A DNA stretch of 64,000 nucleotides from Acidobacteriota bacterium (GCA_965263035.1 OZ253580.1:2912001-2976000); one strand, 5' to 3'. Positions 1,447 to 19,784 are shown, counted from the first letter of the stretch. Translations and numbers: made by a program. The notes: a model not told the origin generated them from the sequence alone.

Positions 1447-2424
1447 TCAGAAGGGGATTCGATCGACGATGCTGCGGGTGACGCGGCGGCGGTCGTAGAG
1501 CTGGGTGGTGGACGGGTGGGAGTGCCCGACCAGGTGCTGAACCTCCTCGACGGGAACGTTCTGGGAGAGCAGGGCGGTGACGACCATGACGCGGAAGGAG
1601 TGAGGCGTCAGGTGGGCGGGGAGCCCGGCTGAGGCGAGGCGGCGCTTGAGCATGGCCCGGACGGCGGCGCGGGCGACACCCCGGCCGGTGAGGGACCCCC
1701 CACGGAGGGCACCGCGCCACAGCGGCGCTCCGGACGGGTCTTCGGCGATCCCAGCCGCGTTCATGTACGCTCGAATCCACTCATCCAGGTCATCGCGCAC
1801 GAGGATCTCGCGTTCCTTGCCGTTTTTCTCGCGGAACCGAAAGAGCCGACCGTCCTCGTGGGTGCGCAGGTCGCCGACGCGCAGCCGGCAAAGCGCCCCG
1901 ATCCGACACCCGGTCGTGATCAGGGTGCCAAGCATGGCCCGGTCCCGAAGTCCCATGGGGGAGTCGAGTTCAATGGCGGCAAAGAGCCGGCGCGCTTGCG
2001 ACAGGCTGATCTCCGGGGTCTTGCCGTCGAGAACCTGGTGCTGGATCCCCCGGACCGAGTGAAAAGGATTCGAGACGACGGCGTGGCGGGTGACCAGGGC
2101 GTCGAAAAAATACCTGAGCGCCGCGAGGGCCTGGTTCTTGGTGGCGGCCGAGACGGGCAGGTCGCGAAGGAAGCGTCCGGCCAGGCCGGGCGTGACGTGG
2201 GCGAGCTCCAGGTCCTCACGCTCGCAGAACTCGAGAAACCACCCGACGGCCCGGCCATAGGCGCGGCGGGTCTCCGCATTGGAGATCCGGGCGGAGAAGA
2301 ACTCGTCGGCGGCAAAGCAGGCAGTGACGCCGGCCCGTTGCAGGACCGGCGGGAACTCCTGGACGCGCAGCTCCCCGCGGCCGGGTTCGGCGGCGAGGGC
2401 GGGAAAAGGGCCAGCCACAACCAT
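1447..2424 (-). CDS. Xer-like tyrosine recombinase/resolvase
   Basis: N-terminal SAM-like domain; LRDRAML..TGCRIG, HSFR and VGHSHPSTTQLY carry the catalytic R-H-R-H-Y set. Confidence 0.92.
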   Translation of the reverse strand: MVVAGPFPALAAEPGRGELRVQEFPPVLQRAGVTACFAADEFFSARISNAETRRAYGRAVGWFLEFCEREDLELAHVTPGLAGRFLRDLPVSAATKNQALAALRYFFDALVTRHAVVSNPFHSVRGIQHQVLDGKTPEISLSQARRLFAAIELDSPMGLRDRAMLGTLITTGCRIGALCRLRVGDLRTHEDGRLFRFREKNGKEREILVRDDLDEWIRAYMNAAGIAEDPSGAPLWRGALRGGSLTGRGVARAAVRAMLKRRLASAGLPAHLTPHSFRVMVVTALLSQNVPVEEVQHLVGHSHPSTTQLYDRRRVTRSIVDRIPF

Positions 2425-2450
2425 TTACGGTAACGTACTTTACCGACACC
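2423..2450. promoter_or_regulatory. dif-like tyrosine-recombinase site (11-6-11)
   Basis: ATTTACGGTAA-CGTACT-TTACCGACACC resembles the E. coli dif reverse complement ATTTAACATAA-TATACA-TTATGCGCACC; abuts the recombinase start. Confidence 0.7.
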
Positions 2451-2931
2451 GATTCCCGGCCGGCGCCAAGAGGCCACGCTCCGGGCAACCGCCCGGACTC
2501 TCAGGCGTTTAGCGCCGCATTTTGTGGGATCCGATTCCTCCTCCGCAGCCCAGAGTTCCCGACCCCGGTCCATCCGTTCCGAGTCGCGGGACATCCGCAC
2601 TGAACTTCACGACGCTGCCCCTCTCCGCACTCTGGAGGCCTTCCAATAACTGAAATTAACGGACTTTCTGGGAGATATCGGAGGGTTTCTCTGGTTCTAC
2701 GGTCCAAGAGAAGCTGACCTGCCCCCTCCTGGGGGGCTAGGGTTCAAAAAGATAGGATTTCGAACCGACGCCCAAAAAATGCTGAGGACTGCATTATCTC
2801 CCGAATCGTTCCATTTACCAGGACTAACAGGCCCTGGACCCAACACACACCACAGGATTGGCAATCGATTCTCAATAATTGACCAGCCATTATAGGGGAA
2901 CCCGGCTGACAGTCCAGCTGAAAATGTCTGT

Positions 2932-3018
2932 CCCCGGTTGGCGGAATTGGCAGACGCGCTGGATTTAAAATCTGGTGGGCTTCGGCCCGTGGAGGTTCGG
3001 GTCCTCCGCCGGGGACCA
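2932..3018 (+). tRNA. tRNA-Leu(UAA), atypical
   Basis: Acceptor CCCCGGT/GCCGGGG, discriminator A, encoded CCA; D arm GCG-GAATTGGCAGA-CGC; anticodon arm CTGGA-TT-TAA-AA-TCTGG; long variable arm GGGCTTCGGCCC; T arm GGAGG-TTCGGGT-CCTCC. Confidence 0.9.
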
Positions 3019-3035
3019 GCGTTCTTCCATCACAC

Positions 3036-3674
3036 CTAAAACCCAAGAGTCTTTAAGAACTCAAGCCCGCGTGACTCCAGATCGAGCCCTGTTTTTTCGA
3101 AAGGACCGGGGCGGTCTATTTCGTAACGTCTCCACAGCGAGAATAAAACAAGACCGACGTGGTGTGCGGTTTCTTTCATTTGCGTGACCAATTCCACAGG
3201 AATCGGTTCAGGTGTTACGCGGCTCGCTTCAACTACTCGGCGCGCTTCATCTACTACAAGCGCAAGGCCATCGAAGGCACCGAGCAAATTCGCAGTGTCT
3301 CGGTGGCCCAGTGAGCCCAATTTTGGTAGCGCGGCTTCAAGAACCACTCTGCCAGTTAGCCTCTGTTCTAGGTTAATAATGCTCCGTCCCAGGCGTTCTA
3401 CGTCTACGTGTGACAAGTTCAGTCGCGGCAGCAACCGGACTAACATACTCAATTTTCCGTAGAGATCCGCACTTACAAGCGCAGCGACTGATTTTTCGTC
3501 GCGCCTGCGTTCGCGGTCCTGAAGCTTGCGAGCGTTCTTCATCGTCAGCCACGCCGAAAGGAACGCAGCTCCCACCGCAATCAAAGCCGACGCCATAATT
3601 GCCAAGACAGTCCAAATCGTTTCGCTGCTTGGCGCTTTGGAAAGTGAAGTAACCAGGGAACACCAATAGCTCAT
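3036..3674 (-). CDS. hypothetical protein with N-terminal transmembrane helix
   Basis: 212-aa ORF; IWTVLAIMASALIAVGAAFLSAWLT followed by a charged coil; start uncertain. Confidence 0.7.
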   Translation of the reverse strand: MSYWCSLVTSLSKAPSSETIWTVLAIMASALIAVGAAFLSAWLTMKNARKLQDRERRRDEKSVAALVSADLYGKLSMLVRLLPRLNLSHVDVERLGRSIINLEQRLTGRVVLEAALPKLGSLGHRDTANLLGAFDGLALVVDEARRVVEASRVTPEPIPVELVTQMKETAHHVGLVLFSLWRRYEIDRPGPFEKTGLDLESRGLEFLKTLGF

Positions 3675-4121
3675 TGAAAGTCCTTACAGGCGCTTGGCGT
3701 TTGTCCCGGATCAGCCATTTCAAACACTTCGATCAGCAGCAAGGCGACCATCTTATCGATCCAGTATGTCAACCTCGGCGTGGTACTCTGGCGGGGCCTG
3801 GAGGCGTTCTTCCGCTTGGTCTGCCTGGGAGTTTGGGCGGGCGGCGTCCGGCTCACCAGGTCGTCCAAGCACCCCCGGCCAAGGCTCAGTGCCGGGGGTG
3901 TGAGTCCCCCGCCGGTGCCGTCAACCTGACACCACACCATCAAGAATGTGGTGTCACCAAAATATGATAGACTTCCCATCGTGGTCGGACAGGTTTAGTA
4001 TACTGTCCGCGTCAACTCACGGGCCAGACCAGACCCATCGCACTCTAGTCAATTGCTTTCCTGGTCTGGCCTTCCCTACCGTGTCGTACCGACGTAGTAC
4101 CATCCACTCGACTAGAGTGAG

Positions 4122-5471
4122 ATGGGACAAGCACACAGTCGAAGCAGACAATCGAAGGTAGTTGAGGCTGCTCAGTCCGTCCTTGGCAGCCTGGGGATAG
4201 ACCGGACCGACTCAGCCCCCCCTTCGATCCAGCATTACCACCACCAGCACCGGGACCAGTACGGAAGCCGAAGGGAGTGCTACAGCGACCTGGGAGGCCG
4301 TGCCTGGGGTAGAGAAGCCAAGGGCCGTTGGTCGGCCAAGGGTGTCCTCTGGAAGATCATACTGAAGGGACTGTGCCGGTCCGTCCGACGCTACACACAC
4401 CAAGAGATAGGTGAGCGGGTACTGGCCAGGGCCAAGGCTCTGGGGCTCAACGAGGAACAGGTAGCAACGGCGGGACTCAAGGATCTGAGTGCCCGGTCGG
4501 TTCGTTATCGGCTCCGAAAGTACGGCCTGAATAGCCTGAAAACAGGCCCTAAAAATAGCCCGAAAAGTGACACTTTTTCTAAAGAGGGATCTAAGAAACA
4601 GACTTACATTTTATTACATTCTAAGAATCAGGATAGGAGAAGTTCTATAGAATCTACTTCTACCCCTTCTTCTCCTACAACTCTTAAAACAGAGTTAAAG
4701 GTAAATTCTGTTTCGGAAAGGTTTTCGCCGGAGAAGCTGGAACACGGAAACCCTGAGAAATACTGGTGGGGCCGCCTGACGCCGTCGAGCAGGTTCCAGA
4801 GGGATCTGCCGTACTTCCAATTCAAAGAGGGACCCTGGGTTGTCCTGGTCTACGGAGCTTGCCATCCGGGACACACGGTACGAGTTGACTCCAAGGGGGA
4901 GCCCCTAGACATCGAGGTCAGGGCAGTCATCCGCCGATTCTCTCACTACCAGAACGGACGGGATCTGACCCTTTGCACGTTCTGGAGCCACAAGCCGGAA
5001 AACGGACCATTCAAGAAATGGAAAAAGGTGGAGCAGCGGGACACGGTTCCTCGATCCTGGGACCAGACCTACAGCACGATTGGAAGGGACAAGGTGCCGG
5101 AGAAGTCCAAGATGCCGGTGGGGACGATCTGGAAGGATGTCAGCAGTCCCGATATGGATATTTTCAGATGGGAGTCCAGGGAGGCGTTCATGAAGGCTTA
5201 CCACCAATACAGGAAGGATCTGACCACGGCTGCCTGGGAGGGTTATGTACTAGGAGAAGTACAGGTCGGAGGACTGTTCTACGGGTGGAGCCGGGAGTGT
5301 TCCATCGACCAGAGCGTGATGGAGGTTACAGAGGTCATTCGACGGTGCCGTGATCGGCAAGGGCGGAAGATGTTGCGGGTAAAGGCTCGGATGTCCTCTA
5401 CGAAGATACACTCCGGAGACCACGTGCTATTCAGCGCCAGCTACTGCAAACCGACGGGGAGGCCGTCATGA
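4122..5471 (+). CDS. hypothetical protein, putative replication initiator (HTH + S/T/K-rich linker + duplicated beta domain)
   Basis: 449 aa; HTH-like YTHQEIGERV...LSARSVRYRLRKYGL followed by an AT-rich internal segment; first gene of an overlapping operon. The function is inference. Confidence 0.6.
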   Translation: MGQAHSRSRQSKVVEAAQSVLGSLGIDRTDSAPPSIQHYHHQHRDQYGSRRECYSDLGGRAWGREAKGRWSAKGVLWKIILKGLCRSVRRYTHQEIGERVLARAKALGLNEEQVATAGLKDLSARSVRYRLRKYGLNSLKTGPKNSPKSDTFSKEGSKKQTYILLHSKNQDRRSSIESTSTPSSPTTLKTELKVNSVSERFSPEKLEHGNPEKYWWGRLTPSSRFQRDLPYFQFKEGPWVVLVYGACHPGHTVRVDSKGEPLDIEVRAVIRRFSHYQNGRDLTLCTFWSHKPENGPFKKWKKVEQRDTVPRSWDQTYSTIGRDKVPEKSKMPVGTIWKDVSSPDMDIFRWESREAFMKAYHQYRKDLTTAAWEGYVLGEVQVGGLFYGWSRECSIDQSVMEVTEVIRRCRDRQGRKMLRVKARMSSTKIHSGDHVLFSASYCKPTGRPS

Positions 5472-5677
5472 GCCAACAAACATTGCAATTCGGTCCTGAC
5501 GTTTCGATCCCGTCACCGGCTCCCATTACGCTTCGATACATGGAGCAAGCGGGACCCTACAGGGATTCCAAGCCGCCTGCAAACGAACCGATGGAGGAGG
5601 TCGGAATCCACTCACGGGAGAGCAACGGGACCAGGAAGCTGCGCTCGCTGATCCCGCGTCCTTCCCCGCTGGAGTGA
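5468..5677 (+). CDS. small hypothetical protein
   Basis: ATGA overlap with upstream gene, GGAGG RBS. Confidence 0.55.
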   Translation: MSQQTLQFGPDVSIPSPAPITLRYMEQAGPYRDSKPPANEPMEEVGIHSRESNGTRKLRSLIPRPSPLE

Positions 5678-5877
5678 CTGCGCAGGCCAGACCCCGACCG
5701 GGATACGCGATGGCCTACGCGCTGCCGATGTTGGTCCCTGGACACGTCTTGCACATCGGCTGCAAGACGCACTCAACGACTTCACAGGAAGACCTGTATG
5801 TCCCAGTGGGGACGGCGGTCCGGTGCTGCATCTGCGGCGAGCCGGTGAGCTTGAAAGGGGAGACCAGGTGGAGCTGA
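5674..5877 (+). CDS. small putative zinc-binding protein
   Basis: GTGA overlap; CKTH...CCIC motifs. Confidence 0.55.
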   Translation: MTAQARPRPGYAMAYALPMLVPGHVLHIGCKTHSTTSQEDLYVPVGTAVRCCICGEPVSLKGETRWS

Positions 5878-6086
5878 TCTCCTTCAGGCGCAATGGCTAC
5901 CTAATCCGTTGGCCGTCCCAGTTCGGAGACTTCACCGCGGTCTGCGCCCGATGCTGGGCACGATCTCCAAACTTGAGATCCCTGCTGGAGGCGGGGCCGG
6001 GAGAGTGGGCCTCCCCTCTCAGCATCACCTGCACCCGTTGCCGGAAAGTTCTACGATTGATGCTCGGCCGACGAAAGGAGAACTAG
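5868..6086 (+). CDS. small CxxC-CxxC zinc-finger protein
   Basis: GTG after AAAGGGGAG; CARC...CTRC. Confidence 0.55.
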   Translation: MELISFRRNGYLIRWPSQFGDFTAVCARCWARSPNLRSLLEAGPGEWASPLSITCTRCRKVLRLMLGRRKEN

Positions 6087-6091
6087 ACCTG

Positions 6092-6427
6092 ATGACTAGA
6101 AAACACACTCTCACCGCGACCCCGGAACGGTTGCCGAACGTGACCGCGTCCAAAAAATACACCGTACAGCACCGCGACAAGTTCGGATTCGCCAACGTCA
6201 GCGTCGTCCCGACTACCGGCGATCTCTCGACCGACGATCCGGCGTCCGTGCTTCCTGGCGGACGCAATATCGTCTTGCACGTCGGAAGCTCCGAGACACT
6301 GGCGGCATCGGGACCCCAGAGGATAAGGGAATATCTACAGTTAACTGTGGGGGGCCAAGGGGGGTATGGTTTCCCCCTGTACCGGCCTCCCCGTGCATTT
6401 TCTTCTATCAATCGTCCTGGAGTTTGA
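6092..6427 (+). CDS. hypothetical protein
   Basis: AAGGAG RBS, ATG 6092; last gene of the operon. Confidence 0.5.
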   Translation: MTRKHTLTATPERLPNVTASKKYTVQHRDKFGFANVSVVPTTGDLSTDDPASVLPGGRNIVLHVGSSETLAASGPQRIREYLQLTVGGQGGYGFPLYRPPRAFSSINRPGV

Positions 6428-6874
6428 GAAAGTTATAAGTAGAGGGGGCATCCACTGGAACACAGCATGGCAGTCGAAGCGAATCAGGCATGACAGGGGC
6501 GCCCTGAACCAGCAGGGACAAAGACCATTCCCGTCCCGTTCGGAATGCCCCTACCCGTCCCACTGTTCCAGCACCCGTTTCCACCTCCAACCCCTCCCGG
6601 GTCCAATTCTCTTTTTCCCGTGGGACTTTTCTCCCCTGTACTGGCCTCCCCGGGCTCCCGTTTGGCCATGTGTCTGTCGGTTTGCACGATCTGGTGGCCT
6701 ACGCATAAGGCTCCGAACTGGGGCTTCTGGGCCCGCTCTGGAAGCTCACTTTCGATGGAAATGGTGGGATCGGGTTGTCGCCTATAACCCGGGCTTACCG
6801 CGTAGCGGTAAGCGGCTCTGCGTATTCAACCCGGTGTTTTCGACATGGGTTGTTCGCTTGGAGAGGTCGACTAA

Positions 6875-7628
6875 CAGCCCGTGGCAAAAACCCCAATTTC
6901 TCTGACTAATGTTCTTTCTGTGAGTTGATGTTGAGATGGTTTATTGATGGATCCGAGGAGCCCAAAACAGCGAATCGGGCCGGATCGACGCCCAGAAACG
7001 CTCCCAGACCCGATCCCAGCCGATCCAGCGACCGGTTCGCGCCCCCAAAAGCGTAAAAAGACGTGCCCGACCGCGGCCCGGGAGACTGCGGGGCGTACCC
7101 ACCCCCGTCAGATGGCGCAGCAGCAATCTCAGATTGAAGCCGCAGACATGGATCAGCAGTCGCTTGCGCACGTTGGCGTGGCCCCGGACGAAGATCCGAC
7201 GTAACCCTCCCGTGCCGAACTGGTGCGCGACAAGGTGGAGTGATTCGGGGGCGTCTCCTCCGGATCCAAGTCCAGAAAAGCCCGCACACTCATCGAATCC
7301 GCCACTCGCCATGCGATGGCCCGTTCCGAGTTTAGCCCTTCGAAGTACCCCAACAACAGCATCCGGAAGTACCGTCCGGGGCGCAGACTCGGGCGCCCGG
7401 TCCCGTCGGCACAAAACCGCGCGCACAGTCCCTCCACGAAAGCGTCGAACCCCGCTTTCTCCAGCACCCGATTCAGCCGCTCGTAGAAGGGATGCCCCGG
7501 ACTCCGAGGCAGTTTCTCCGCCGCCACCCACATCTTCCGTTGCCGTCCCGCAGACGGTTTCTTTCCCATGGCCATAGTGTCATTTTATTTCAGAGATCTG
7601 GCTCTTCCCGGACTTTTGCCACGGGCTG
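6875..7628 (-). mobile_element. internally deleted IS1182-family element
   Basis: Terminal IRs CAGCCCGTGGCAAAA / TTTTGCCACGGGCTG; 4-bp duplication CTAA at 6871-6874 and 7629-7632. Confidence 0.88.
6941..7575 (-). pseudogene. IS1182 transposase remnant (N-terminus fused out of frame to C-terminus)
   Basis: GHPFYERLN...GRPSLRPGRYFRMLLLGYFEGLNSERAIAWRVADS...HSTLSR, then in another frame GGLRRIFVRGHANVRKRLLIHVCGFNL; DDE core missing. Confidence 0.85.
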
Positions 7629-8452
7629 CTAAGCTATCCAAAATTTATCGTCCCCGTGTGACGACCATGGACGCCCCCCCCGAACCCGGAGAGCCGGAAT
7701 GGGGGTTTGACGGGAGTCTGGGGTGCGGATTCCCGGCTCCCAGACGGCCCCAGATCGACACAGAGGGCGTGAGGCATACTGAGCACCTTCGATACACGCT
7801 ACGGCCTTCTACGGAGTCTTTGGGTCAAGTCGTTGATAAAGAGGGATTGATGCAGGATTTGAACAGGACTGTGACCCAAAGACGGGTTCAAAACTTGACC
7901 TAAGGATCGGATCAATACTATCGGGGCACGTATCACGGGCGCGAGGGTTAACGGGCCGTGCTATGGACGAGGCACGCGGGCACGCAGTGAAGAACCCGGG
8001 ATCAAGCAGCGACACTTATGCGGCGGGCGTCCCGGACATCCGCCGAAGGCCCTCCAAACCAGGGCGCTGGGAAAGCCGATACTGGCGCGGATGGAGTACC
8101 GGCAAGGCGTAGTACCCGGACCGTCCGTAAACCGACACGGAGCGGGCTGTCCGGGAGGAAGCTCCCCATCCCACGGAAGACAGACCTCACCTGGTCGATT
8201 CGAGGATAGAATCATCGGCATGTGCGTTCGGATCGCCGCAAAATAGGACTAGCTTTGCCTTCTGCCTGTTCCTATGGAGCTTGAGCGCCTTCCCGATCCA
8301 TAGTTCCTGCGTGCCCTTATAGGTAGACCGTCCAGAAGTCGAAAATCAGCAGGACTAGAATCCACGGAAACGGAACGAGAAGAGTCTGCTTCCAGTTCGG
8401 CTTCTAGTGCCTCCTGATCAAATCGGTTTACAAATTCTCCGCTCGATACAAT

Positions 8453-10793
8453 TCACGGCGCCGGCGCCTGCTTGTATGTAACCTGGAACGACGCATCGCT
8501 GACCAGCCGGTTGAAATTCGGATCGTCCATGAACCTTTTAAACAGCTGGGTGTCGTCCTGTATCACCCCCACCATGACTTGTTCCAGTACCTTGTCGTGT
8601 TCGATGCGTGCATTCTCCCGGTCCGAGTTTTCCTGAGCGTTCCTGTAGGCGGTGTTCTGTGCGACTCGTGAAGGAATCGTTTCAGTGATGAGCTCCAGCA
8701 CACGGTCTTCGTCTTCCCATTGAATGTTCCCGAATAGATCGTTGAAGGTCTGGATGATGTTCGATAAGAGGTCTATCTCGGGCTCCGCACGGCCACCGGA
8801 ACCGTTGTCCGGAATGGGGTCGATCTTGGCGTCCTCATCCGACAGGCGAATTTTCTGCATCGCCCGTTTCTCGACCCGGTAGCTATCCATATCGATGGCG
8901 TCGAGAACGCCCTTGGACAAATCCTCCTCTCGCGGGGACGGTAACTTTGAGACCAGGAAGTTCAGGAAAATCGAGCGTTCTTCCCACTTCGCGTTGTTGT
9001 ACGGAAGGATCGAAGAGAGGAAGGCGTAGGTTCTCAGGAACACTTTGGCCTGGCGCTTGAACTGAACTTGCCCATCTTCGTCCAGGTCCTGCTCGTACAC
9101 CGCCACGCAAGCATCGAGGATGGGATCAAGCTCCTCGCGGTCCTCGCCAGCCAAATAGCGCGACACGAAGTCTTTGATCTGCTCAAAGGAATAGACCTGT
9201 GCGCCGTCCAGGTCTGCCTGGAGGTCGTGCAACTTGTTGGGATCGGTTTCTTCGGACAGGATCGTCGCTCGATAGTAGTCCGCGAAGGCGTCGCGGATGG
9301 TGTCCGATTCGTTCAGGAAATCCAGCACGAATACATCGTGCTTCTTGGGATGAGCCCGGTTGAGCCGCGAGAGGGTCTGGACCGCCCTGACGCCCGAGAG
9401 CGTCTTGTCCACGTACATCGTATGCAGCAGAGGTTCGTCGTACCCGGTTTGGAACTTGTCCGCGCAGACCAGAAAGCGGTACGGATCCTCCTGGAACCTC
9501 TCGGCAATCTTGTTCGAAGGAAAGCCGTTCAGTGTGGGCTCGCTCACCTTCGCCCCGCCGTATTCGTGCTCGCCCGAGAAGGCCACGATCGCCTGATAGC
9601 GGCTCTTTCGTTCCTTCAGGTAGGCGCGGATGGCATGGAAGTACTGGATCGCGCGTTTGACGCCATTGGTGACGACCATCGCCCGGGCTTTGCCGCCGAT
9701 CTTGCCGTGGGACAGCACCTGCGTGTGGAAGTGGTCCACCATGATCTCCGACTTGAGGCGGATCGCATGGTCGTGTCCCTCAACGTAGAGCCGCAACTTC
9801 TTGCGGGCCCTTTTCGCTTCGAACTTGGAATCGTCCTCCACCGCCTTGGCGAGCTTGTAGTAGCTCTTGACCGGCGTGTAGTGCCGCAGCACGTCCAGGA
9901 TGAAACCCTCCTGGATCGCCTGTTTCATGCTGTAGGTGTGAAAGGCGTGATGCTGGACCGTACCGTCGGGCTGCCGGTCCGGGTCACCAAAGCTCTCCAA
10001 GGTCTTGTTCTTCGGGGTTGCGGTGAAGGCAAAGTAGCTGGCGTTGGGAAGGAGCTTGCGCGACTCCATCAGGCGGTTGATCTGATCCTCGTAAGTCTCC
10101 TCTTCCGCGGTTTGTCCCGCCTTGCCCAGCGCCTGGGCCATGGCTGCTGCGGTGCGGCCGCCCTGGCTTGAGTGCGCCTCGTCAATGATGATCGCAAAGC
10201 GGCTCCTACGATGTTCGTTCCCGATCTCATCGAGAATGAATGGGAACTTCTGGATCGTCGAGATAATGATCTTTTTTCCGGACTCGATGAAACGTCGCAG
10301 GTCGCCCGAACGGTCGGCGTGCCCTACCGTCGAGCGCACTTGGGCGTATTTCTTGATCGTGTCTCGGATCTGCCTGTCGAGGATGCGGCGGTCGGTGACA
10401 ACTATGATTGAGTCGAAGACTGGAGCTTCGTCCTTTTCCAGCCGGATCAGTTGATGGGCCAGCCATGCGATCGAAAAGCTCTTGCCGCTGCCCGCCGAGT
10501 GTTGGATCAGGTAACGCTTACCCGCTCCGTGGGCTCCCGCATCGTCCAGGAGCCGGCGCACCGCGTCGAGCTAATGGTAGCGGGGCCAGATCTGGACTCG
10601 TCTCTTCTTCCCCGTCTTGGCGTCCTTCGATTCCACGATTTGGGCGTAGTTCTCAATGATGTTGGTCAGGCTCCGGCGGATCAGCACTTCGCGCCACATG
10701 TAGTCTGATCGCAGGCCGTTCGGGTTGGGCGGGTTCCCCGCACCGTCGTTCCAACCTCGGTTGAAGGGCAGGAACCAGGAGGCCTTCCCCTGC
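8453..10793 (-). pseudogene. hsdR: type I restriction enzyme R subunit, 5'-truncated with a nonsense mutation
   Basis: Helicase motifs HSAGSGKS, DEAHSSQ, FTATPK, TGYDEP. The frame continues upstream as ...FLPFNRG...QIWPRYH*LDAV with TAG (10571-10573) in place of the expected Gln; homology stops at about 10793. Confidence 0.9.
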
Positions 10794-10874: not shown

Positions 10875-11200
10875 ATGGAGAACGGATCAAAATACCTTCT
10901 AGCAGCTTGCATCTTGGTTTTGCTGTCGGCAAGTCCTGTGAACGCCGCTCGCATTGTGAATGAAGCAAGTGGAATCGCTTGTTACTCCACGCAAGACCTT
11001 CTGACTGCCCACAGTGCCTTCGATTTTTCGACCAAAGTCAGTTGCAGCTTCTAATTGCACAGAACAAGTGCTTCGTGATGCAGAAGAATTGGCGTGTCCG
11101 CCAATTCCATGAAGAGCGGACTATTAACGGGGTGAACGTGAAGATGGTTCTGGTTCGACTCGATACGAGTATCGACATCCCATCGCGTGGACATTGTTAG
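10875..11200 (+). pseudogene. frameshifted secreted protein
   Basis: GAGGAG RBS; signal peptide MENGSKYLLAACILVLLSASPVNA; frame stops near 11054 while a second frame (FFDQSQLQLLIAQNKC...) continues to 11200. Confidence 0.45.
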
Positions 11201-11332
11201 CGAACCTTACCTCGCCGTAACCTTAGTCAGCAATGTCAGCCTTGAATGGCATCATCAAGAGAATGAAGTTCGGGAAGGCAGGGGTTTTTGTTGACTCTGG
11301 ACGAGATTCTCCGGGGCGCGGATGAAGAGTGG

Positions 11333-11993: not shown

Positions 11994-14900
11994 TCATATG
12001 TCTCGATCTTCAGGTTCGATCGGATCTGGAAGATCTGCCACAACGCGAACCGTCTCGATGCTGACCTGGACGATTCGCCGAACTGACGAGATCAAATCCC
12101 GCGGATCCTCAAACCAGCCGTTGGGATCGTTGGTGAGACCGCTTCGCGTGTCTCGCTTGATGTAGTAGCGGTCGATGAACCATTCGATCGGCGTCCGTCC
12201 GTTGACGTCGTACTGTTGGGCGGCCGCCGGAATTCCCCGCAAGCGAATATGCTCGTTGACCACGAGCTCGGTCCTATCAGAGTCGGCCCATTTCATCTTC
12301 TTCGTTCCGATCCGGAAGTGCTCTGGTCGAGGTTCTCCCGGCTGGGCATGGTGCAACTCCAGCGGACACTCCTTACAGGTCTCATAGCCGAGATGAATTC
12401 GCGCGAGTTCTCGTCCGGCTGTGGCGAAGGTGCGGAAATCAGGCGCGAAAGGAATGCGCGGGAGTTCCTTGGACAGATCATTGGAGAAGCGCTTGCGATA
12501 GGCGGGGGCGTGTAGAACGCCATAGATGTAGTCGAAGATCTCATCCTTGGTAATCGTGTTGTCCTTGTAGCGCACTCGAAAAGCTCGCAAGGCCTTATCG
12601 GAGATATTGTCGACCCGCTCCAGTTTCTGCGCATGGCCGGGAAGAGCACGCTGCGCGTTCGCCGGCTGGCGATACCGGTAGCGCGGAAAGCATTGGCCCT
12701 TCGAAATCAACTCTAGGTCCGGCATCGAGTTGACCACCAGGGCGGAAAACGGCTTCACTGATCCGACGCCCGGAACACAAATGGCTCGGTTCTCACTATT
12801 GGCCGCCGGGAAGATGCGGTCCATCTGGTACTTGTTGTTCACAAGCACATATTCAACGTAGCAGTGCTGCTTGACGAAAGCCCGGTACGACGTTGCCCAT
12901 ATCCTGTCCGGGTCATACGCCACTTTCTTCCGGCGTCTTAGGTTATTTTTCAGTTCTCGATCCCACCGGACATGCGAGGAATGAAGGCTCGCGAGGCTCT
13001 CCACTAGATCTTGTAGATCTTGGGCTTCGACTCGACTTTCCTCCAATTCCCGCAGAGCTCCAAGATAATCACCCACCATTTTCCGGGCGTTCTCGGCGCA
13101 GGCATCGCGGGAGAAGTTGTAGATGTAGGCGTCTCGACTCGTGGCGAAGCCTCTCGAATAGAGCTTGAAGATGGCGTCGTCAGTTTTACCTGACTTCGCC
13201 GTCTTTGTTCCCATCGGGTAGAATTTCTGGAACGCCTCGTTGCGTTGGTCGATCCAGTCATCGTGGCGATCGGGCGTAATCCTCCGCCAGTCCTTAATGC
13301 CGTCGATCGACTCCGCTGTACGCAGGATCACCAGCTTCTCTTCACGCTTGAGGTAATCGCCGATATCCCGGTAGAGGATGCGGCAGCCTTCATGGTCGGC
13401 TTCCGGATTGCGTACCAAGATCGTAATCGCTACTGGAGCTCGCGACCCTTGCCCGAAAACGTTGTCTCCTTCCGAACGGCGCCTATCGCCCGATGTTCTT
13501 GCATTGCCCCGCATGTTTAAAACGTAGACTGAACTGAACTCCTCCACCAGACAGGCGCGCACGCCCGAATCCACGTTGCCGTCTATCCAGGAACCATTGG
13601 TGACCACGGCAACGACACCCTGCTCACCGATCCGGTCTGAGGCCCATCGGATCGCCATCTTGTAGGTGTCGTAGAGGCTGTTCTTCAATGTCGCTCGGGA
13701 CCGCGCCGCATAGGTAGCAGCGACGCGCCCCTTTAGTTTGGGATAGTCGACGTTGGGGTTATCATCCGCCGAACTTCGCTGCCCTGCCGACCACGGCGGA
13801 TTGCCAACGATGACCTGGATCGACGTCTTCCGCTGGCGTTCCACCCGTTCACTGTTGTCCGGCAGCCAGTATGCGGAGAACTCTCCCTGTCCCTTGTTCA
13901 GATTGAAGGTGTCGGTCAACACGATGCCTTGGAACGGCTGGTAGGCACTCTCAGGGCCTCGCCGGCCATGAAACGCCTCTTCGATATGGATGGCCGCAAT
14001 GTAGTAGGCCAGCAGCACGATTTCGTTGGCGTGGAGCTCTTTCTCGTACTTCCGGGCCAGATCGACTTCTCGGATCAGCGCAGACTGGATCAGGCGCACC
14101 AGAAAGATGCCGGTGCCGGTGAACGGATCCAGGACGTGGACATCCTCGTCCCCCAGTCCCCGGCCGAACTCTTCCCGCAACACGTGGTCCGCACTGTTGA
14201 GGATGAAGTCCACGACCTCGACTGGCGTGTAGACGATGCCGAGCCGGTCCGCTTCCTTCTTCAGCGCCGTGGCGAAAAACTTCTCGTACAGCTCCATCAG
14301 CACGCGCTGCCGCGCTTGACTGTTGTCCAGTCCCCGGGCGCGAAGCCGTACGCTTGCATAGAAGGGCTCCAGATCTCGGGTCTCGTTCTCCAAGCCGAAG
14401 TCCCCGAAATCCTTCCGCAGGGCATCGAGCGCTTGGGCTACCGGGTTGCTGGCGGCAAAGTCATAGTGCTCGAACAGAGCCTCGAAGACCGGCTGTGTCA
14501 GGACATGCTGAGCCATCATTTCGACGGCATTTTCGCGGGTGATCGACTCGTTGATCGAAACCTTGAGTTCTCCGTGGAAAGCCTCGAACCACTCGCGCAG
14601 AAGGTCATTTTCGGGGACGTCGAGAAGACCCTCGATCCGGTAGACGAGCCGCTGGAAGATATCGGCCACGTCCTTGGCCCAGGTCTCCCAGTATTTCCGG
14701 TCGCCACACTTGTCAACGATCTTGGCGAAGATCGCTCCGGGGGGCAGATCCAGAGGGGGAAAGGGCAATTCGGGGAGGAGAGGGCCAGGCGTCGGATCGT
14801 CGATCCCGCCTCCACCGAAGATGATCCGACTCGTCGGCGTGTTGTTGAGATCAATCTTGTTGATCTCGGCATCGAAGCGGTCGTCGTGCGAGCGTAGAGC

Positions 14901-16763
14901 ATTCAGTACGCTCCAGACCACAGCGAAACGATCATCCTCATCGAGTGCCCGGGCTGGATCAACTCCCGCCCGCACCGCGATGGGGAGAATGATGTAACCA
15001 TACTTCTTGCCCTCGGCCTTGCGCATGACCCGACCAACCGCCTGAACAATATCCACCTGCGATTTCCGCGGATTCATGAACAACACCGCGTCCAGCGCCG
15101 GCACGTCGATGCCCTCGGATAGGCACCGGGCATTCGAAAGGATGTGGCAGGCTCCATTGGAGTCGCCTCTGAGCCACTCGATACTGGCCTTGCGATCCAG
15201 GGCGTGGTGCCGCCCATCCACATGGCGCGTCTCGCACCGAAATGCTTCCGATCGCTCGCTTTCGGGTAGCTGCCGGATGGCCTGGTCCACGATCGTTCCC
15301 CAATGAGCCACAAATTGTTGAGAAGATATAATCGTATTCGTGAATGCGATGGCACGTTTGAGAGCAGCGATTGGTCCCTTGTCTGGGGTCCGGTTCTCCG
15401 GATTTTGCAACGCGCGCCAGCAACCGACGATTTTTGCCGTGTCACTTAGGTTGATCTCGGACCCGCCTGAGACCGCCGCAAAATGCGCCTGCAACGTCGC
15501 ATCGACATGCTGTTCAGAGATAGCGAAAACAACCACCTTATAGTCGGACAATAGATCCTGCTCGACGGCCCGGGAGAAGGGGAGACGGTGCAACTCCGGC
15601 CCGTAGGTCGCCGGATCGTCCATGGAGAAGACTTCGACTTCGTGACGGGCTGCCTTCCTCTTGGCTCCTTCCGTATAAAGCCGGGGCGTCGCGGTCATGT
15701 ACAGGCGCTTCGCCGCCCGAATTCTCTTGGCGTCGTGAACCAGTACGAAGGGAGACGTCTTGTCACCGGGGCGCTCGATGCCGGTCGTTCGATGGGCCTC
15801 GTCACACAGGACGAAATCGAACGGCGGCGCCCCTTCGTCCTGTGCCTGCTCCACGATCCCCAGCGAGTGGTAGGTGCAAAAGACGACCGTCATCGTGTTC
15901 GGCCGTAATTCCTGTAACGCCTTGGAGATTGACGACGGGTCCGTCGTGACCGGGATCTCGAGTTCGTGAAGGGAGGCGTCCTCGTCATTGCGGCCGGCGC
16001 GTGTATCCGAGCAGATCCCGATATAGCGGTGAGGGACCTCCTGTTGCGTCGCCCATTCCCGCATCGACTGCTGGAACAGAGAGATCGACGGCACCAGGTA
16101 AAGGGCTCGGCCCCCGACGCCCGCCACCTCTTCCGCGATGCGCAGCGCCGTAAAGGTTTTTCCCGTGCCACAGGCCATGATCAGCTTGCCGCGATCTTGA
16201 TCCTTGAAACCGCCGATCACGTCATCGAATGCAGCTTGCTGGTGCGGGCGCAGGTGGAACGGTTCGGCCCGTAAAGACAGATCCTCCGGTTGGTCTTGAA
16301 CCAGGTCCGGCCAATCGAAGGGACGGCTGGCAAGATCGCCAAAGCGAACCACTTGGAAAGGGAGGCTCAGCGCTCTTATCGTGTTGCGCGCCGTTGGCCC
16401 CCACGAGTCTCCGGTATCGACGAAGAGACGACCGGTGAAGGGTTCGCGAGCTGAGGCCGAAATGAAGGAATCCAGATGGGGTTTCGAAATCCGCGTCCCG
16501 GCCGCGTAGCATTTGCATTGAATCGCGCAGTAGCCGCCCTGGCTCTCTTCGGCGACCAGATCGACTCCCGTATCGGTTCCCGTAAACCCAGGCATGTGCT
16601 GGACCCACTCGGACCAGAGCCAGACCTGGGAGAACCGACCCTTGTAGTGGGGATCCTCGGTAAAAAACGTCTTCATCAGACGTTCGAAGAGGCGGCCCTG
16701 GTGAGCTGTGGAATCAGCGATGGACCTGAGATGATCCAAGGTTTTTTGGAAGCTGACACTCAT
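11994..16763 (-). CDS. type ISP (LlaGI/LlaBIII-like) restriction-modification enzyme
   Basis: 1589 aa: Mrr-like nuclease (D..GVDLVA...AIQCKCY), SF2 helicase (MACGTGKT, DEAHRT, MTATP, QAVGRVMR), N6A methyltransferase (LDPFTGTG, GNPPW), C-terminal TRD. Confidence 0.95.
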   Translation of the reverse strand: MSVSFQKTLDHLRSIADSTAHQGRLFERLMKTFFTEDPHYKGRFSQVWLWSEWVQHMPGFTGTDTGVDLVAEESQGGYCAIQCKCYAAGTRISKPHLDSFISASAREPFTGRLFVDTGDSWGPTARNTIRALSLPFQVVRFGDLASRPFDWPDLVQDQPEDLSLRAEPFHLRPHQQAAFDDVIGGFKDQDRGKLIMACGTGKTFTALRIAEEVAGVGGRALYLVPSISLFQQSMREWATQQEVPHRYIGICSDTRAGRNDEDASLHELEIPVTTDPSSISKALQELRPNTMTVVFCTYHSLGIVEQAQDEGAPPFDFVLCDEAHRTTGIERPGDKTSPFVLVHDAKRIRAAKRLYMTATPRLYTEGAKRKAARHEVEVFSMDDPATYGPELHRLPFSRAVEQDLLSDYKVVVFAISEQHVDATLQAHFAAVSGGSEINLSDTAKIVGCWRALQNPENRTPDKGPIAALKRAIAFTNTIISSQQFVAHWGTIVDQAIRQLPESERSEAFRCETRHVDGRHHALDRKASIEWLRGDSNGACHILSNARCLSEGIDVPALDAVLFMNPRKSQVDIVQAVGRVMRKAEGKKYGYIILPIAVRAGVDPARALDEDDRFAVVWSVLNALRSHDDRFDAEINKIDLNNTPTSRIIFGGGGIDDPTPGPLLPELPFPPLDLPPGAIFAKIVDKCGDRKYWETWAKDVADIFQRLVYRIEGLLDVPENDLLREWFEAFHGELKVSINESITRENAVEMMAQHVLTQPVFEALFEHYDFAASNPVAQALDALRKDFGDFGLENETRDLEPFYASVRLRARGLDNSQARQRVLMELYEKFFATALKKEADRLGIVYTPVEVVDFILNSADHVLREEFGRGLGDEDVHVLDPFTGTGIFLVRLIQSALIREVDLARKYEKELHANEIVLLAYYIAAIHIEEAFHGRRGPESAYQPFQGIVLTDTFNLNKGQGEFSAYWLPDNSERVERQRKTSIQVIVGNPPWSAGQRSSADDNPNVDYPKLKGRVAATYAARSRATLKNSLYDTYKMAIRWASDRIGEQGVVAVVTNGSWIDGNVDSGVRACLVEEFSSVYVLNMRGNARTSGDRRRSEGDNVFGQGSRAPVAITILVRNPEADHEGCRILYRDIGDYLKREEKLVILRTAESIDGIKDWRRITPDRHDDWIDQRNEAFQKFYPMGTKTAKSGKTDDAIFKLYSRGFATSRDAYIYNFSRDACAENARKMVGDYLGALRELEESRVEAQDLQDLVESLASLHSSHVRWDRELKNNLRRRKKVAYDPDRIWATSYRAFVKQHCYVEYVLVNNKYQMDRIFPAANSENRAICVPGVGSVKPFSALVVNSMPDLELISKGQCFPRYRYRQPANAQRALPGHAQKLERVDNISDKALRAFRVRYKDNTITKDEIFDYIYGVLHAPAYRKRFSNDLSKELPRIPFAPDFRTFATAGRELARIHLGYETCKECPLELHHAQPGEPRPEHFRIGTKKMKWADSDRTELVVNEHIRLRGIPAAAQQYDVNGRTPIEWFIDRYYIKRDTRSGLTNDPNGWFEDPRDLISSVRRIVQVSIETVRVVADLPDPIEPEDRDI

Positions 16764-18473: not shown

Positions 18474-19625
18474 TCAAGCGATATAATTCGCCCAATGCCC
18501 CATCAATTCGCGTCGCCGCGCGAACATATCAGATCGAAAATAGGCGCCTTCAACACCCTTGACGGTGTGCGCCAGACAAGCTTCTGCGACTTCCCGCGCT
18601 GCCCCGGTGTCGCCACACCAATCTCGGAAACTGGACCGGAAGCCATGCGGCACCGCCGGGATGCCGTTTTCTCTGATGAGCTTGGAAATCGTCGAATCGC
18701 TCAACGTCCGCCCGCTCGGACTCGGAAACACCAGCCCGGAACCGTCCGCGAATTTCAACACCTCGTTAAGCACTTCGAGAGCCCGTTTCGACAACGGCAC
18801 CCGGTGCTCCCGCCGGGTCTTCATGCGCTTGCCCGGTATGGTCCAAGTCGGTTTCGAAAGGTCCACTTCCTTCCACCGAGCGCCCCGAACCTCACCGGAG
18901 CGACAAGCCGTTAGCACAATGAACTCAAACGCAAGCACCGTGGCCCGGTAGGCACCCGACTGTCGAACTTTCTTAATCGCGGCCCCGACTTCACCATGCG
19001 GGAGGGCCCTATGGTGCTGGCGGCGAACACCGTTTTTCGGGAGAGCCGCCCCGATGACTTCTCCGGCCGGATTGTCTTGACGGTAGTTCTGGGCCACCGC
19101 CCATTTCATGACGGCGCCGATGCGTTGCCGCACCCGTCGAGCCGTCTCCCGCTTCTCGTTCCAGATTGGAAGGAGCACGGCCAGCACGTCAGCCGTCGTT
19201 ATCTTGTCCACGCGCTTGCGCCCCAGTATCGGCATGGCGTAGTCACGGAGACTCGCCCGCCATTGCGCCTCAGATTTGCCGCCGGGCCGCCACGTCGCCG
19301 CATGAATTCGGATGACCTTATCGGCGGCTTTCTCAAACGTCGGAATGCCGCCGCCGCGCGGGTCGCGTCCTTGGTGGACGGCCCGGCGGTTAACCAGCAC
19401 CACGTTGCGGGCCTCGGCCAGCGTGACCACTGGATAGATGCCGAGGCCAATGTTGAACGGCTTGCCGTTCATTCTGAGCCGCTGCGACCAGGTTTTGGAG
19501 AGTCGCCCGGATGCGGTAGGCTTGACCAAGATGCTCAAACCATGCCCACCGCGCCCGTCTCCATACCGGCCCGGTCGGTTGATGGATCTAACGAAAGATG
19601 CCGACAGTTGCTTGGGACGTTTCAT
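18474..19625 (-). CDS. P4-like tyrosine integrase
   Basis: Arm-binding N-terminus (PGRYGDG..GLSILV...GLGIYPVVTLAEAR); LTACRSGE, HGFRSSFRDW, LAH, AYFRSD. Confidence 0.95.
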   Translation of the reverse strand: MKRPKQLSASFVRSINRPGRYGDGRGGHGLSILVKPTASGRLSKTWSQRLRMNGKPFNIGLGIYPVVTLAEARNVVLVNRRAVHQGRDPRGGGIPTFEKAADKVIRIHAATWRPGGKSEAQWRASLRDYAMPILGRKRVDKITTADVLAVLLPIWNEKRETARRVRQRIGAVMKWAVAQNYRQDNPAGEVIGAALPKNGVRRQHHRALPHGEVGAAIKKVRQSGAYRATVLAFEFIVLTACRSGEVRGARWKEVDLSKPTWTIPGKRMKTRREHRVPLSKRALEVLNEVLKFADGSGLVFPSPSGRTLSDSTISKLIRENGIPAVPHGFRSSFRDWCGDTGAAREVAEACLAHTVKGVEGAYFRSDMFARRRELMGHWANYIA

Positions 19626-19763: not shown

Positions 19764-19784
19764 TGGCGGATACCTCCTCCGCCA
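19764..19784. mobile_element. putative att site, tRNA-Ser 3'-end-like
   Basis: TGGCGGA-TACCTCC-TCCGCCA upstream of the integrase; ATTATC/ACTATC repeats at 19632-19652 resemble arm sites. Confidence 0.55.

Follow-up and report, generated by a model that had tools for sequence, protein, structure and literature searches.

In Streptomyces, the tRNA-Leu(UAA) encoded by bldA is, according to the available part of the source, the only decoder of UUA in its host (PMC2000904). Phage tRNAs can neutralise defences that cleave tRNA, as the accessible sections of two papers report (PMC11464382, PMC10802454), and a tRNA-dependent lysogeny is described for actinobacteriophages in the accessible part of PMC10865867. 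Among satellites, the core gene list of those phage-inducible chromosomal islands that form capsids (cf-PICIs) is given in the sections of PMC10085698 that were available; the word tRNA does not occur in the main text of that survey as available, and the available text of PMC10690885 lists no tRNA genes in the Streptomyces satellites. The part of the literature covered held no paper on such elements in Acidobacteria. The subject here is an unusual tRNA-Leu(UAA) gene and its neighbours in a 64,000-nucleotide stretch of an Acidobacteriota bacterium (GCA_965263035.1 OZ253580.1:2912001-2976000), called the window and numbered from its first letter, which corresponds to positions 2912001-2976000 of the host genome G000, a single contig of 6.198 Mb. 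A first-pass annotation had taken window 2932-6427 for a satellite-like module whose tRNA supplies or gates translation of its own replication operon, or backs up a host tRNA attacked by anticodon nucleases. The window tRNA is instead an accessory tRNA of mobile elements and not a bldA-like switch. Window 2429-3979 is read here, with a probability of roughly 55%, as a relic of the module next to the attachment (att) site of small phage-like integrative elements, in which the tRNA is a mobile accessory gene and from which the neighbouring operon is a separate cassette. An attractive but unsupported switch story is thus replaced by a testable one, that of a genus-restricted tRNA lineage confined to mobile DNA.

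The gene (window 2932-3018, plus strand) is the sole tRNA that ARAGORN finds in the window, as tRNA-Leu(taa), and Rfam RF00005 scores it at 37.8 bits with a gathering score of 29. Its cloverleaf opens with C1-G72 and has a wobble pair at U7-G66, a long variable arm and an anticodon stem with two G-U pairs; the T-loop is TTCGGGT with G at position 58, the discriminator is A and CCA is encoded. ARAGORN, Rfam and the cloverleaf therefore agree with the atypical features noticed at first reading. The layout is that of a type II elongator tRNA-Leu, with a 7-bp acceptor, a 3-bp D stem, a 5-bp T stem and the long variable arm, and A73, U8, A14, G18G19 and T54-psi55-C56 are kept by sequence reading. 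We take A73, the long variable arm and G18G19 to be identity or tertiary elements for bacterial leucyl-tRNA synthetase.

G000 contains 63 tRNA genes, five of which are Leu(UAA). One is canonical, with a G start and a normal T-loop; it lies at c2801586-2801672 and is kept in 8/8 genus relatives. The other four begin with C and are called the C1 type: the window copy, its exact duplicate at c2101850-2101936 (locus B), and two copies diverged from it at 5348837-5348922 (element C) and c5672126-5672212 (element D). Besides the five full genes, G000 has no partial Leu tRNA copy that could act as an att repeat. The first-pass annotation had asked for a second, canonical gene and had held that its proposal would fall if the window gene were the sole Leu(UAA) gene of the host and syntenic in island-free relatives; the canonical gene exists, and the C1 type occurs only in islands missing from relatives, which bears out the view that the tRNA is mobile and not a host housekeeping gene. 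As also anticipated, TTA is the rarest Leu codon of G000, with 0.93 per 1000 codons and 0.9% of Leu over 3215 long open reading frames (ORFs), so that with five Leu(UAA) genes the commonest anticodon in the tRNA set serves the rarest codon. Four of the five genes that decode it are imported, which means that tRNA gene content here is shaped by mobile elements and not by host codon use.

The lineage is narrow in its distribution. Across 41 genomes and a survey of genus relatives, G000, G001 and G004 alone showed the C1 type. The exact pattern of the C1 5' half is present in 2/401 Acidobacteriota genomes (G000 and G001), and every match with one mismatch is a gene with G at position 1; the 41- and 401-genome counts include one unpublished genome (G016), which has no C1-type match. 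With G004 from the other surveys added to G000 and G001 from the pattern, three genomes of one genus carry the lineage. The body of the C1 tRNA (window 2939-3007) is 84% identical to tRNA-Leu(UAG) at G000 3697495-3697564 and 77% identical to canonical Leu(UAA), which suggests an origin by anticodon change together with a new acceptor stem.

The borders of the elements that carry the C1 tRNA were set by comparison with uninterrupted sites in genomes of the same genus. Element C (G000 ~5348771-5358660) is 9.9 kb long with a short flanking direct repeat, and element D (G000 ~5643498-5672268) is 28.8 kb long with a 20-nt flanking repeat; the other delimited elements are L019 (8.4 kb) and L020 (~10 kb) in G001 and L013 (11.6 kb) in G004. 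In 5/5 delimited elements, of 8.4-28.8 kb, the tRNA lies 56-594 nt inside one end (56-66 nt in C and D) and a tyrosine integrase reads inward from the opposite end. Short direct repeats of 6-20 nt flank C and D; at the empty sites of L019 and L013, both present in G000, the two flanks share an overlap of 8-11 nt.

Element C encodes a large terminase (TerL; phrog_9, 1e-28), an HNH nuclease, a capsid protein (phrog_10, 3e-5, a weak match), a portal (PF04860, 4e-10) and the integrase, and the ORFs scanned with Pfam and PHROG gave no tail, lysis or replication matches. By tblastn, TerL and capsid homologues are present in L013, L019 and L020 and portal homologues in L019 and L020; the HNH nuclease is shared by C and L020, and L020 has the full set of integrase, TerL, HNH, portal and capsid. 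All four tRNA carriers of 8.4-11.6 kb (C, L013, L019 and L020) thus have a large terminase and a capsid protein, three of them with a portal, and they look like capsid-forming satellites. With the cf-PICIs they have in common a size of ~8-12 kb, an integrase, large terminase and capsid throughout, the HNH nuclease in C and L020, and the portal in C, L019 and L020; no tail or holin matches were found. They differ in gene order and are smaller than the 14-kb median, and the remaining ORFs of element C have no Pfam or PHROG match to an alpA-type regulator, a primase-replicase, a small terminase or a head-tail adaptor or connector, divergent versions of which could escape such scans. The window locus itself departs further from the cf-PICIs: it lacks all of the capsid genes, and window 2429-6427 contains nothing homologous to element C's TerL, capsid or portal. 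The earlier label of a satellite-like module is supported for the related tRNA carriers. If the small capsid-encoding elements are true satellites, capsid-forming satellites would be extended to Acidobacteriota and a tRNA would be added to the satellite gene set. IMG/VR scans with the element C capsid and with the 212-aa protein described below returned no related elements.

Some further observations concern these elements. Element C splits a transporter gene that is intact in G002, G003 and G007, leaving a 114-aa 5' piece and a 542-aa 3' ORF (flanks in L041, G000 5348461-5348805 and 5358661-5360289); judged by the translated junction, the transporter is presumably of the sodium:solute-symporter type. 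G000 has at least six further clusters of TerL, capsid or portal homologues without Leu(UAA), 28-68% identical to those of element C, at ~19-23, 364-371, 1785-1789, 4879-4886, 5100-5107 and 5138-5144 kb. In the 8.4-kb element of G001, L019 11000-11202 on the minus strand holds three tRNA-like genes by Rfam (37.6, 53.7 and 43.6 bits); one of the three was called Leu(aag), and a 101-nt one at 11102-11202 was missed by ARAGORN.

The fold of the C1 tRNA has been kept while its carriers diverged. Over five distinct C1 sequences, 95% of stem cells are paired and 8/24 pairs are compensatory, a result equalled by 0/500 shuffles, and sliding the stem partners lowers pairing to 36-49%; an additional run took the C1 copies plus two canonical genes. 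The compensatory changes preserve the cloverleaf across elements whose proteins share only 30-60% identity. Near the tRNA, elements C and D share only the tRNA itself and a leader of ~45 nt, and the tRNA is the best-conserved DNA between them. Because of the covariation and because the similarity of C and D is confined to tRNA and leader, the fold is, or recently was, under selection. The leader occupies window 2887-2931 on the minus strand and is kept in all four C1 copies, each of which has on that strand TGGACT/C, 16 nt and TATAAT, a near-consensus promoter directed away from the tRNA (promoter scan match 2916-2889). The scan gave 1 match against 1.4 expected, so that only the conservation of the leader adds weight, and the leader is a candidate outward promoter.

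As an additional, divergent tRNA that sits on phage-like mobile DNA, reads a codon seldom used in its GC-rich host, scores below the host tRNAs on the general model and yet keeps its cloverleaf by compensatory change, the C1 tRNA resembles the tRNAs of phages and prophages. It is unlike them in that its carriers are very small (8.4-11.6 kb) with head and packaging genes only, in that it is always att-proximal, in that four copies stand in one genome, and in that its carriage is unlinked to TTA use.

The window locus (locus A) appears to be a fragment of such an element. Window 2429-3901 is 99.3% identical to locus B at 2.10 Mb of G000, and window 6387-8317 is 96.5% identical to it; the ~2.5 kb between, 3901-6387, which hold the operon, are swapped in locus B for 630 bp that overlap an ORF related to the one after the tRNA module in element C. 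A 20-nt recombinase core-type site, the imperfect inverted repeat GGTAACGTACTTTACC (2429-2448), forms the left edge of the common segment. Exact copies of the site stand at G000 2914429 and 2102420, and copies with 1-2 mismatches at 5708213, where it adjoins a paralogous integrase, and at 6157451, 6192484 and 3963872, from which we infer that the site has an att role. It stands between the tRNA and a tyrosine recombinase of 325 aa that is divergent from the tRNA (1447-2424, minus strand; Pfam Phage_integrase, 1e-24, with a SAM-like N-domain; phrog_1, 3.5e-32) and belongs to an integrase family with many copies in the genus, the paralogues being 66-87% identical in nucleotides. The order of integrase, core site and tRNA is the one predicted for the circular form of such elements. 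The combination of att core, tRNA and 212-aa protein is probably a relic.

Convergent with the tRNA, at 3036-3674 on the minus strand, lies the gene for a 212-aa protein that is the steady neighbour of the tRNA at three G000 loci and one G001 locus. Its homologues are 100% identical at locus B, 36% in element C and 44.5% in L020, and the family comprises 44 unnamed metagenome relatives, many on contigs of 8-12 kb, with no Pfam domain. AlphaFold 2 models it confidently as a membrane-anchored, all-helical protein (predicted local distance difference test, pLDDT, 87.5), with a transmembrane helix that continues as a long helix over residues 17-86 and is followed by a helical bundle; a fold search with this model gave no PDB or BFVD match at E <= 0.001, and the top rows were generic helical bundles. 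Upstream of it and coupled by ATGA is a 102-aa ORF (3671-3979, minus strand). Conservation covers the last 67 aa of this ORF, which in element C are fused to the homologue of the 212-aa protein; its first ~26 codons fall past the break in homology between loci A and B at 3901.

The operon to the right was correctly described at first as tightly coupled: its genes are joined by ATGA or GTGA overlaps or by a 5-nt gap. It consists, all on the plus strand, of a 449-aa orphan protein (4122-5471), a 69-aa ORF coupled by ATGA (5468-5677) with no Pfam, PHROG or PADLOC family match, a 67-aa Cys/His-containing ORF coupled by GTGA (5674-5877), whose C-terminus recurs at the end of the relative P0002, a small CxxC...CxxC protein of 87 aa from GTG 5823 (5823-6086), for which an alternative GTG at 5869 overlaps the upstream stop and yields ~72 aa, and a 111-aa ORF (6092-6427), the last gene of the cassette, whose last 13 codons fall within the segment common to loci B and D. 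The divergent intergenic region before it (3980-4126) contains nested inverted repeats, an outer pair at 4034-4055/4105-4126 (22 nt, 86%), the right arm of which spans the 449-aa start codon, and an inner pair at 4022-4032/4061-4071 (11 nt, 100%), which may serve as an operator or as a structure in the 5' untranslated region.

The N-terminal region of the 449-aa protein is helical; it is followed by a low-complexity, AT-rich linker and by a C-terminal domain that is conserved and has no known fold. Five relatives were found among 5.8e9 proteins and nine matches among 1.84e9 representatives, and their alignment shows conservation that includes the linker. Window 4572-4722 is a stretch of 150 nt with 33% GC within a gene of otherwise 55-60% GC; it encodes the linker, rich in Ser, Thr and Lys, and is retained with changed sequence in all full-length relatives. 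Pfam, PHROG and PADLOC gave no match to the protein, a PDB profile search gave none at E <= 1, and searches of genome and metagenome contigs for loci related to its gene returned nothing. Its AlphaFold 2 model is poor (pLDDT 39.6). A distant relative gives a weak helix-turn-helix hint (HTH_23, E 4.6e-4, below cut-off), and the protein probably binds DNA through an N-terminal helix-turn-helix. The best ESM Atlas candidate (0.75, a Tc3-type helix-turn-helix) was set aside as too weak for use. Nothing in these searches supports the earlier proposal that the operon encodes replication genes. For the discovery of function, the 449-aa family, with nine matches in 1.84 billion, and the 212-aa family, with its 44 relatives and a confident new helical model, offer clean targets.

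The operon is single-copy in G000 and can be separated from the tRNA module. Locus B has the tRNA without the operon. In Logan data from independent studies, contig X6 (3173 nt) has tRNA, 212-aa gene and operon together, run X5 has a read depth of 21.5 on the tRNA module vs 9.2 on the operon, and in contig X11 (~10% divergent) window 2918 is followed, after 10 other letters, by 3833, a single-contig hint of the operon without tRNA and 212-aa gene. Linkage in another sample is suggested by a contig of 11041 nt, the source of a 118-aa relative of the 212-aa protein as well as of a relative of the 449-aa protein.

The reading of window 2429-3979 as a relic att-proximal module can be put as a working model. 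The module would consist of the recombinase core site, the conserved leader, the C1-G72 tRNA-Leu(UAA) and the convergent 212-aa membrane protein, and would now reside in a 32.6-kb composite island at tRNA-Ser(UGA). The C1 tRNA would be an accessory gene that moves with its element; most likely it would be transcribed, processed and leucylated, and would add UUA-decoding capacity where one chromosomal gene alone serves the rarest Leu codon of the host. Such capacity would help the AT-richer genes of mobile DNA generally and would not be a switch for the adjacent operon, which would be an independent cassette (~3833/3901 to 6387/6427) in the position of the first rightward genes, a slot that other genes fill in sister elements. 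General UUA supply is the most likely role of the C1 lineage, with weak backing from the codon data, in which islands A, B and D have 2.9-3.8 TTA per 1000 codons vs 0.93 genome-wide. Several observations weigh against parts of this model. The codon-supply benefit is weak because carriage of the tRNA and use of TTA do not go together: the range is 0.86-2.7 TTA per 1000 codons in tRNA-bearing elements vs 0.45-12.3 in tRNA-less siblings, as measured on crude ORF sets (longest non-overlapping ORFs >= 100 aa). The Rfam scores of the C1 copies are 37.8-43.6 bits vs 63.2 for the canonical gene in a relative, the copy of element C is under the gathering score and that of L020 is reduced to its 5' half. 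The window and locus B copies have lost A58, the partner of T54, which is retained in the C1 copies of element C, element D, G004 and G001; because of this derived A58G change and the decaying surroundings, the window copy may be impaired. The promoter scan found no plus-strand promoter for the window tRNA. The link between 212-aa protein and tRNA is not universal, L044 having the protein without the tRNA and L013 and L019 the tRNA without the protein. The 325-aa integrase beside the tRNA may belong to a neighbouring element, and loci A and B are not delimitable as single elements because no second copy of the 20-nt core site occurs inside array A or B.

The losses just listed are what would be expected if a host tRNA gene had been captured once by imprecise excision beside att and had been a neutral passenger ever since, the window copy being now a pseudogene. 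The position of the tRNA at the att end in every delimited element, the nearness of its body to the tRNA-Leu(UAG) of the genus, and the insertion sequence (IS) remnants and truncated hsdR around the window locus point the same way. A passenger would not be expected to keep its cloverleaf by compensatory change between elements with such dissimilar proteins, nor to be the best-conserved DNA between C and D, and this explanation is doubtful, if far from negligible. A bolder proposal than the relic module is an undescribed family of 8-12 kb capsid-encoding, tail-less Acidobacteriota satellites with a private att-proximal C1-G72 tRNA-Leu(UAA): in the excised circle the leader promoter would read across attP and drive the integrase, the tRNA would act within the element's own cycle as a nuclease-resistant replacement for the single UUA decoder of the host or as a licence for the TTA-rich membrane protein, and the 449-aa operon would belong to a set of several alternative early modules for regulation or replication. 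Taken as a whole it is unlikely. A role in counter-defence alone, in which the variant replaces or shields a host tRNA-Leu(UAA) cut by an anticodon nuclease that the host or a rival element encodes, has a published precedent in the available text of the two phage papers (PMC11464382, PMC10802454), and the C1 type does depart from the canonical gene in the acceptor and anticodon stems and, within the anticodon loop, at positions 32/38, on islands that carry defence genes. The earlier suggestion of such a backup found no counterpart in the data: no anticodon nuclease and none targeting tRNA-Leu was identified, PADLOC was blank on the seven module ORFs scanned, including the 212-aa, 102-aa and 449-aa proteins, and several C1 copies are decaying. 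This role is rather improbable.

The bldA-like alternative, in which the element tRNA is required for, and hence controls, translation of its TTA-containing operon, starts from codons that are all where the first-pass annotation placed them: 4611, 4614 and 4695 in the 449-aa gene, the first two in tandem, 6341 in the 6092 ORF, and three in the 3036-3674 minus-strand gene (3443, 3146 and 3056). The module has 7 TTA in 1097 codons (6.4 per 1000), ~7x the genome average for this rarest Leu codon. Genes of matched GC (0.52-0.56) have 4.48 per 1000, and the module is not above them (Poisson P = 0.23), an outcome that the annotation itself had named as telling against its proposal. The rate of the 449-aa gene is reached by 13.75% of 160 GC-matched genes; all three of its TTAs lie inside the 33%-GC linker stretch, and the site of the tandem pair (LL) is not kept in relatives. 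The 212-aa gene beside the tRNA stands out more, with 14 per 1000, reached by 2.2% of 46 matched genes, and its element C homologue also has 3 TTA; the TTA positions are not conserved among the three homologues compared at the DNA level. TTA is used more by the siblings that lack the tRNA, G000 has the canonical gene, and tRNA and operon occur apart, in locus B and, as it appears, in X11. Like bldA, the locus encodes a tRNA-Leu(UAA) in a genome that is GC-rich and uses TTA least among its Leu codons; it is unlike bldA in having a canonical gene and four extra copies in place of a sole decoder, and in TTA codons that are neither above GC expectation nor conserved in position. That the tRNA supplies or gates its own operon is thus improbable. 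Least probable is a tRNA-dependent lysogeny in which the element destroys the host tRNA-Leu(UAA) on integration and carries its replacement. The likeness to the actinobacteriophage system, as far as the available text of PMC10865867 describes it, lies in an element that has an integrase and carries a tRNA of its own near attP and, in the circle, beside the integrase; the difference is that attB here is not a tRNA gene and the host isoacceptor is intact. None of the five delimited insertions (0/5) is in a tRNA gene: element C lies in its transporter gene, no tRNA was found at or near the insertion points of D, L019 and L013, and the left flank of L020 has only the element's own truncated copy. 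With no insertion in a tRNA gene, and with the canonical gene intact in G000 and all relatives compared, this explanation is contradicted and was rejected.

The surroundings of the relic module are composite. Synteny with relatives ends exactly at the 3' end of tRNA-Ser(UGA) (G000 2899138; gene 2899049-2899138) and restarts at about window 19880. A 14-nt direct repeat of that 3' end forms the right border (19771-19784, plus strand; E 0.009 within 37 kb), beside an integrase with arm-binding, central and catalytic domains (18474-19625, minus strand; Pfam Arm-DNA-bind_3, Phage_int_M and Phage_integrase), whose domain architecture we take to be that of P4-type integrases. Because of the synteny break at tRNA-Ser and the repeat beside the integrase, the Leu tRNA module lies inside a 32.6-kb composite island (G000 2899049-2931784; window -12951 to 19784), which has the features of an island that targets a tRNA: a tRNA 3' end, a far repeat, a border integrase and absence from relatives. 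The container resembles P4-like tRNA islands in its site, its end repeat, its arm-binding integrase, its restriction systems and its IS, and is unlike them in that the Leu tRNA is internal to the island and not its target. It also contains IS copies, a Fic protein, a portal fragment, an N-truncated type I restriction R subunit of 702 aa, full-length with 1002 aa in element D (8453-10561, minus strand; Pfam SWI2_SNF2, ResIII and T1R_D3; PADLOC REase_I, 1e-34), and a 1589-aa fused restriction-methyltransferase of type ISP/IIG (11994-16763, minus strand; PADLOC PDLC03597 and PDLC03051, E = 0). Directly after the operon, a decayed IS remnant common to loci B and D (6428-8317) is 94-96% identical to G000 2098416-2100338 and 5666840-5671156 and has many partial matches in the five genus relatives searched; its part at 6941-7531 is presumably the C-terminus of a transposase.

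The left half of the island encodes a 477-aa Fic/DOC-domain protein (L035 11327-12760, plus strand; G000 2903327-2904760) and a 181-aa HIRAN-domain protein (L035 17629-18174, plus strand; G000 2909629-2910174), between which lies an IS with a DDE_3 transposase that has ~18 copies in the genome. The edge of the locus B array (G000 2118118-2120234) repeats a 2.1-kb segment from the end of the island with 98.6% identity. The 3.66-kb segment that adjoins tRNA-Ser(UGA) in G001 and G003 sits 3.1 Mb off in G000 (6030335-6033992), and there has therefore been rearrangement at the island border.

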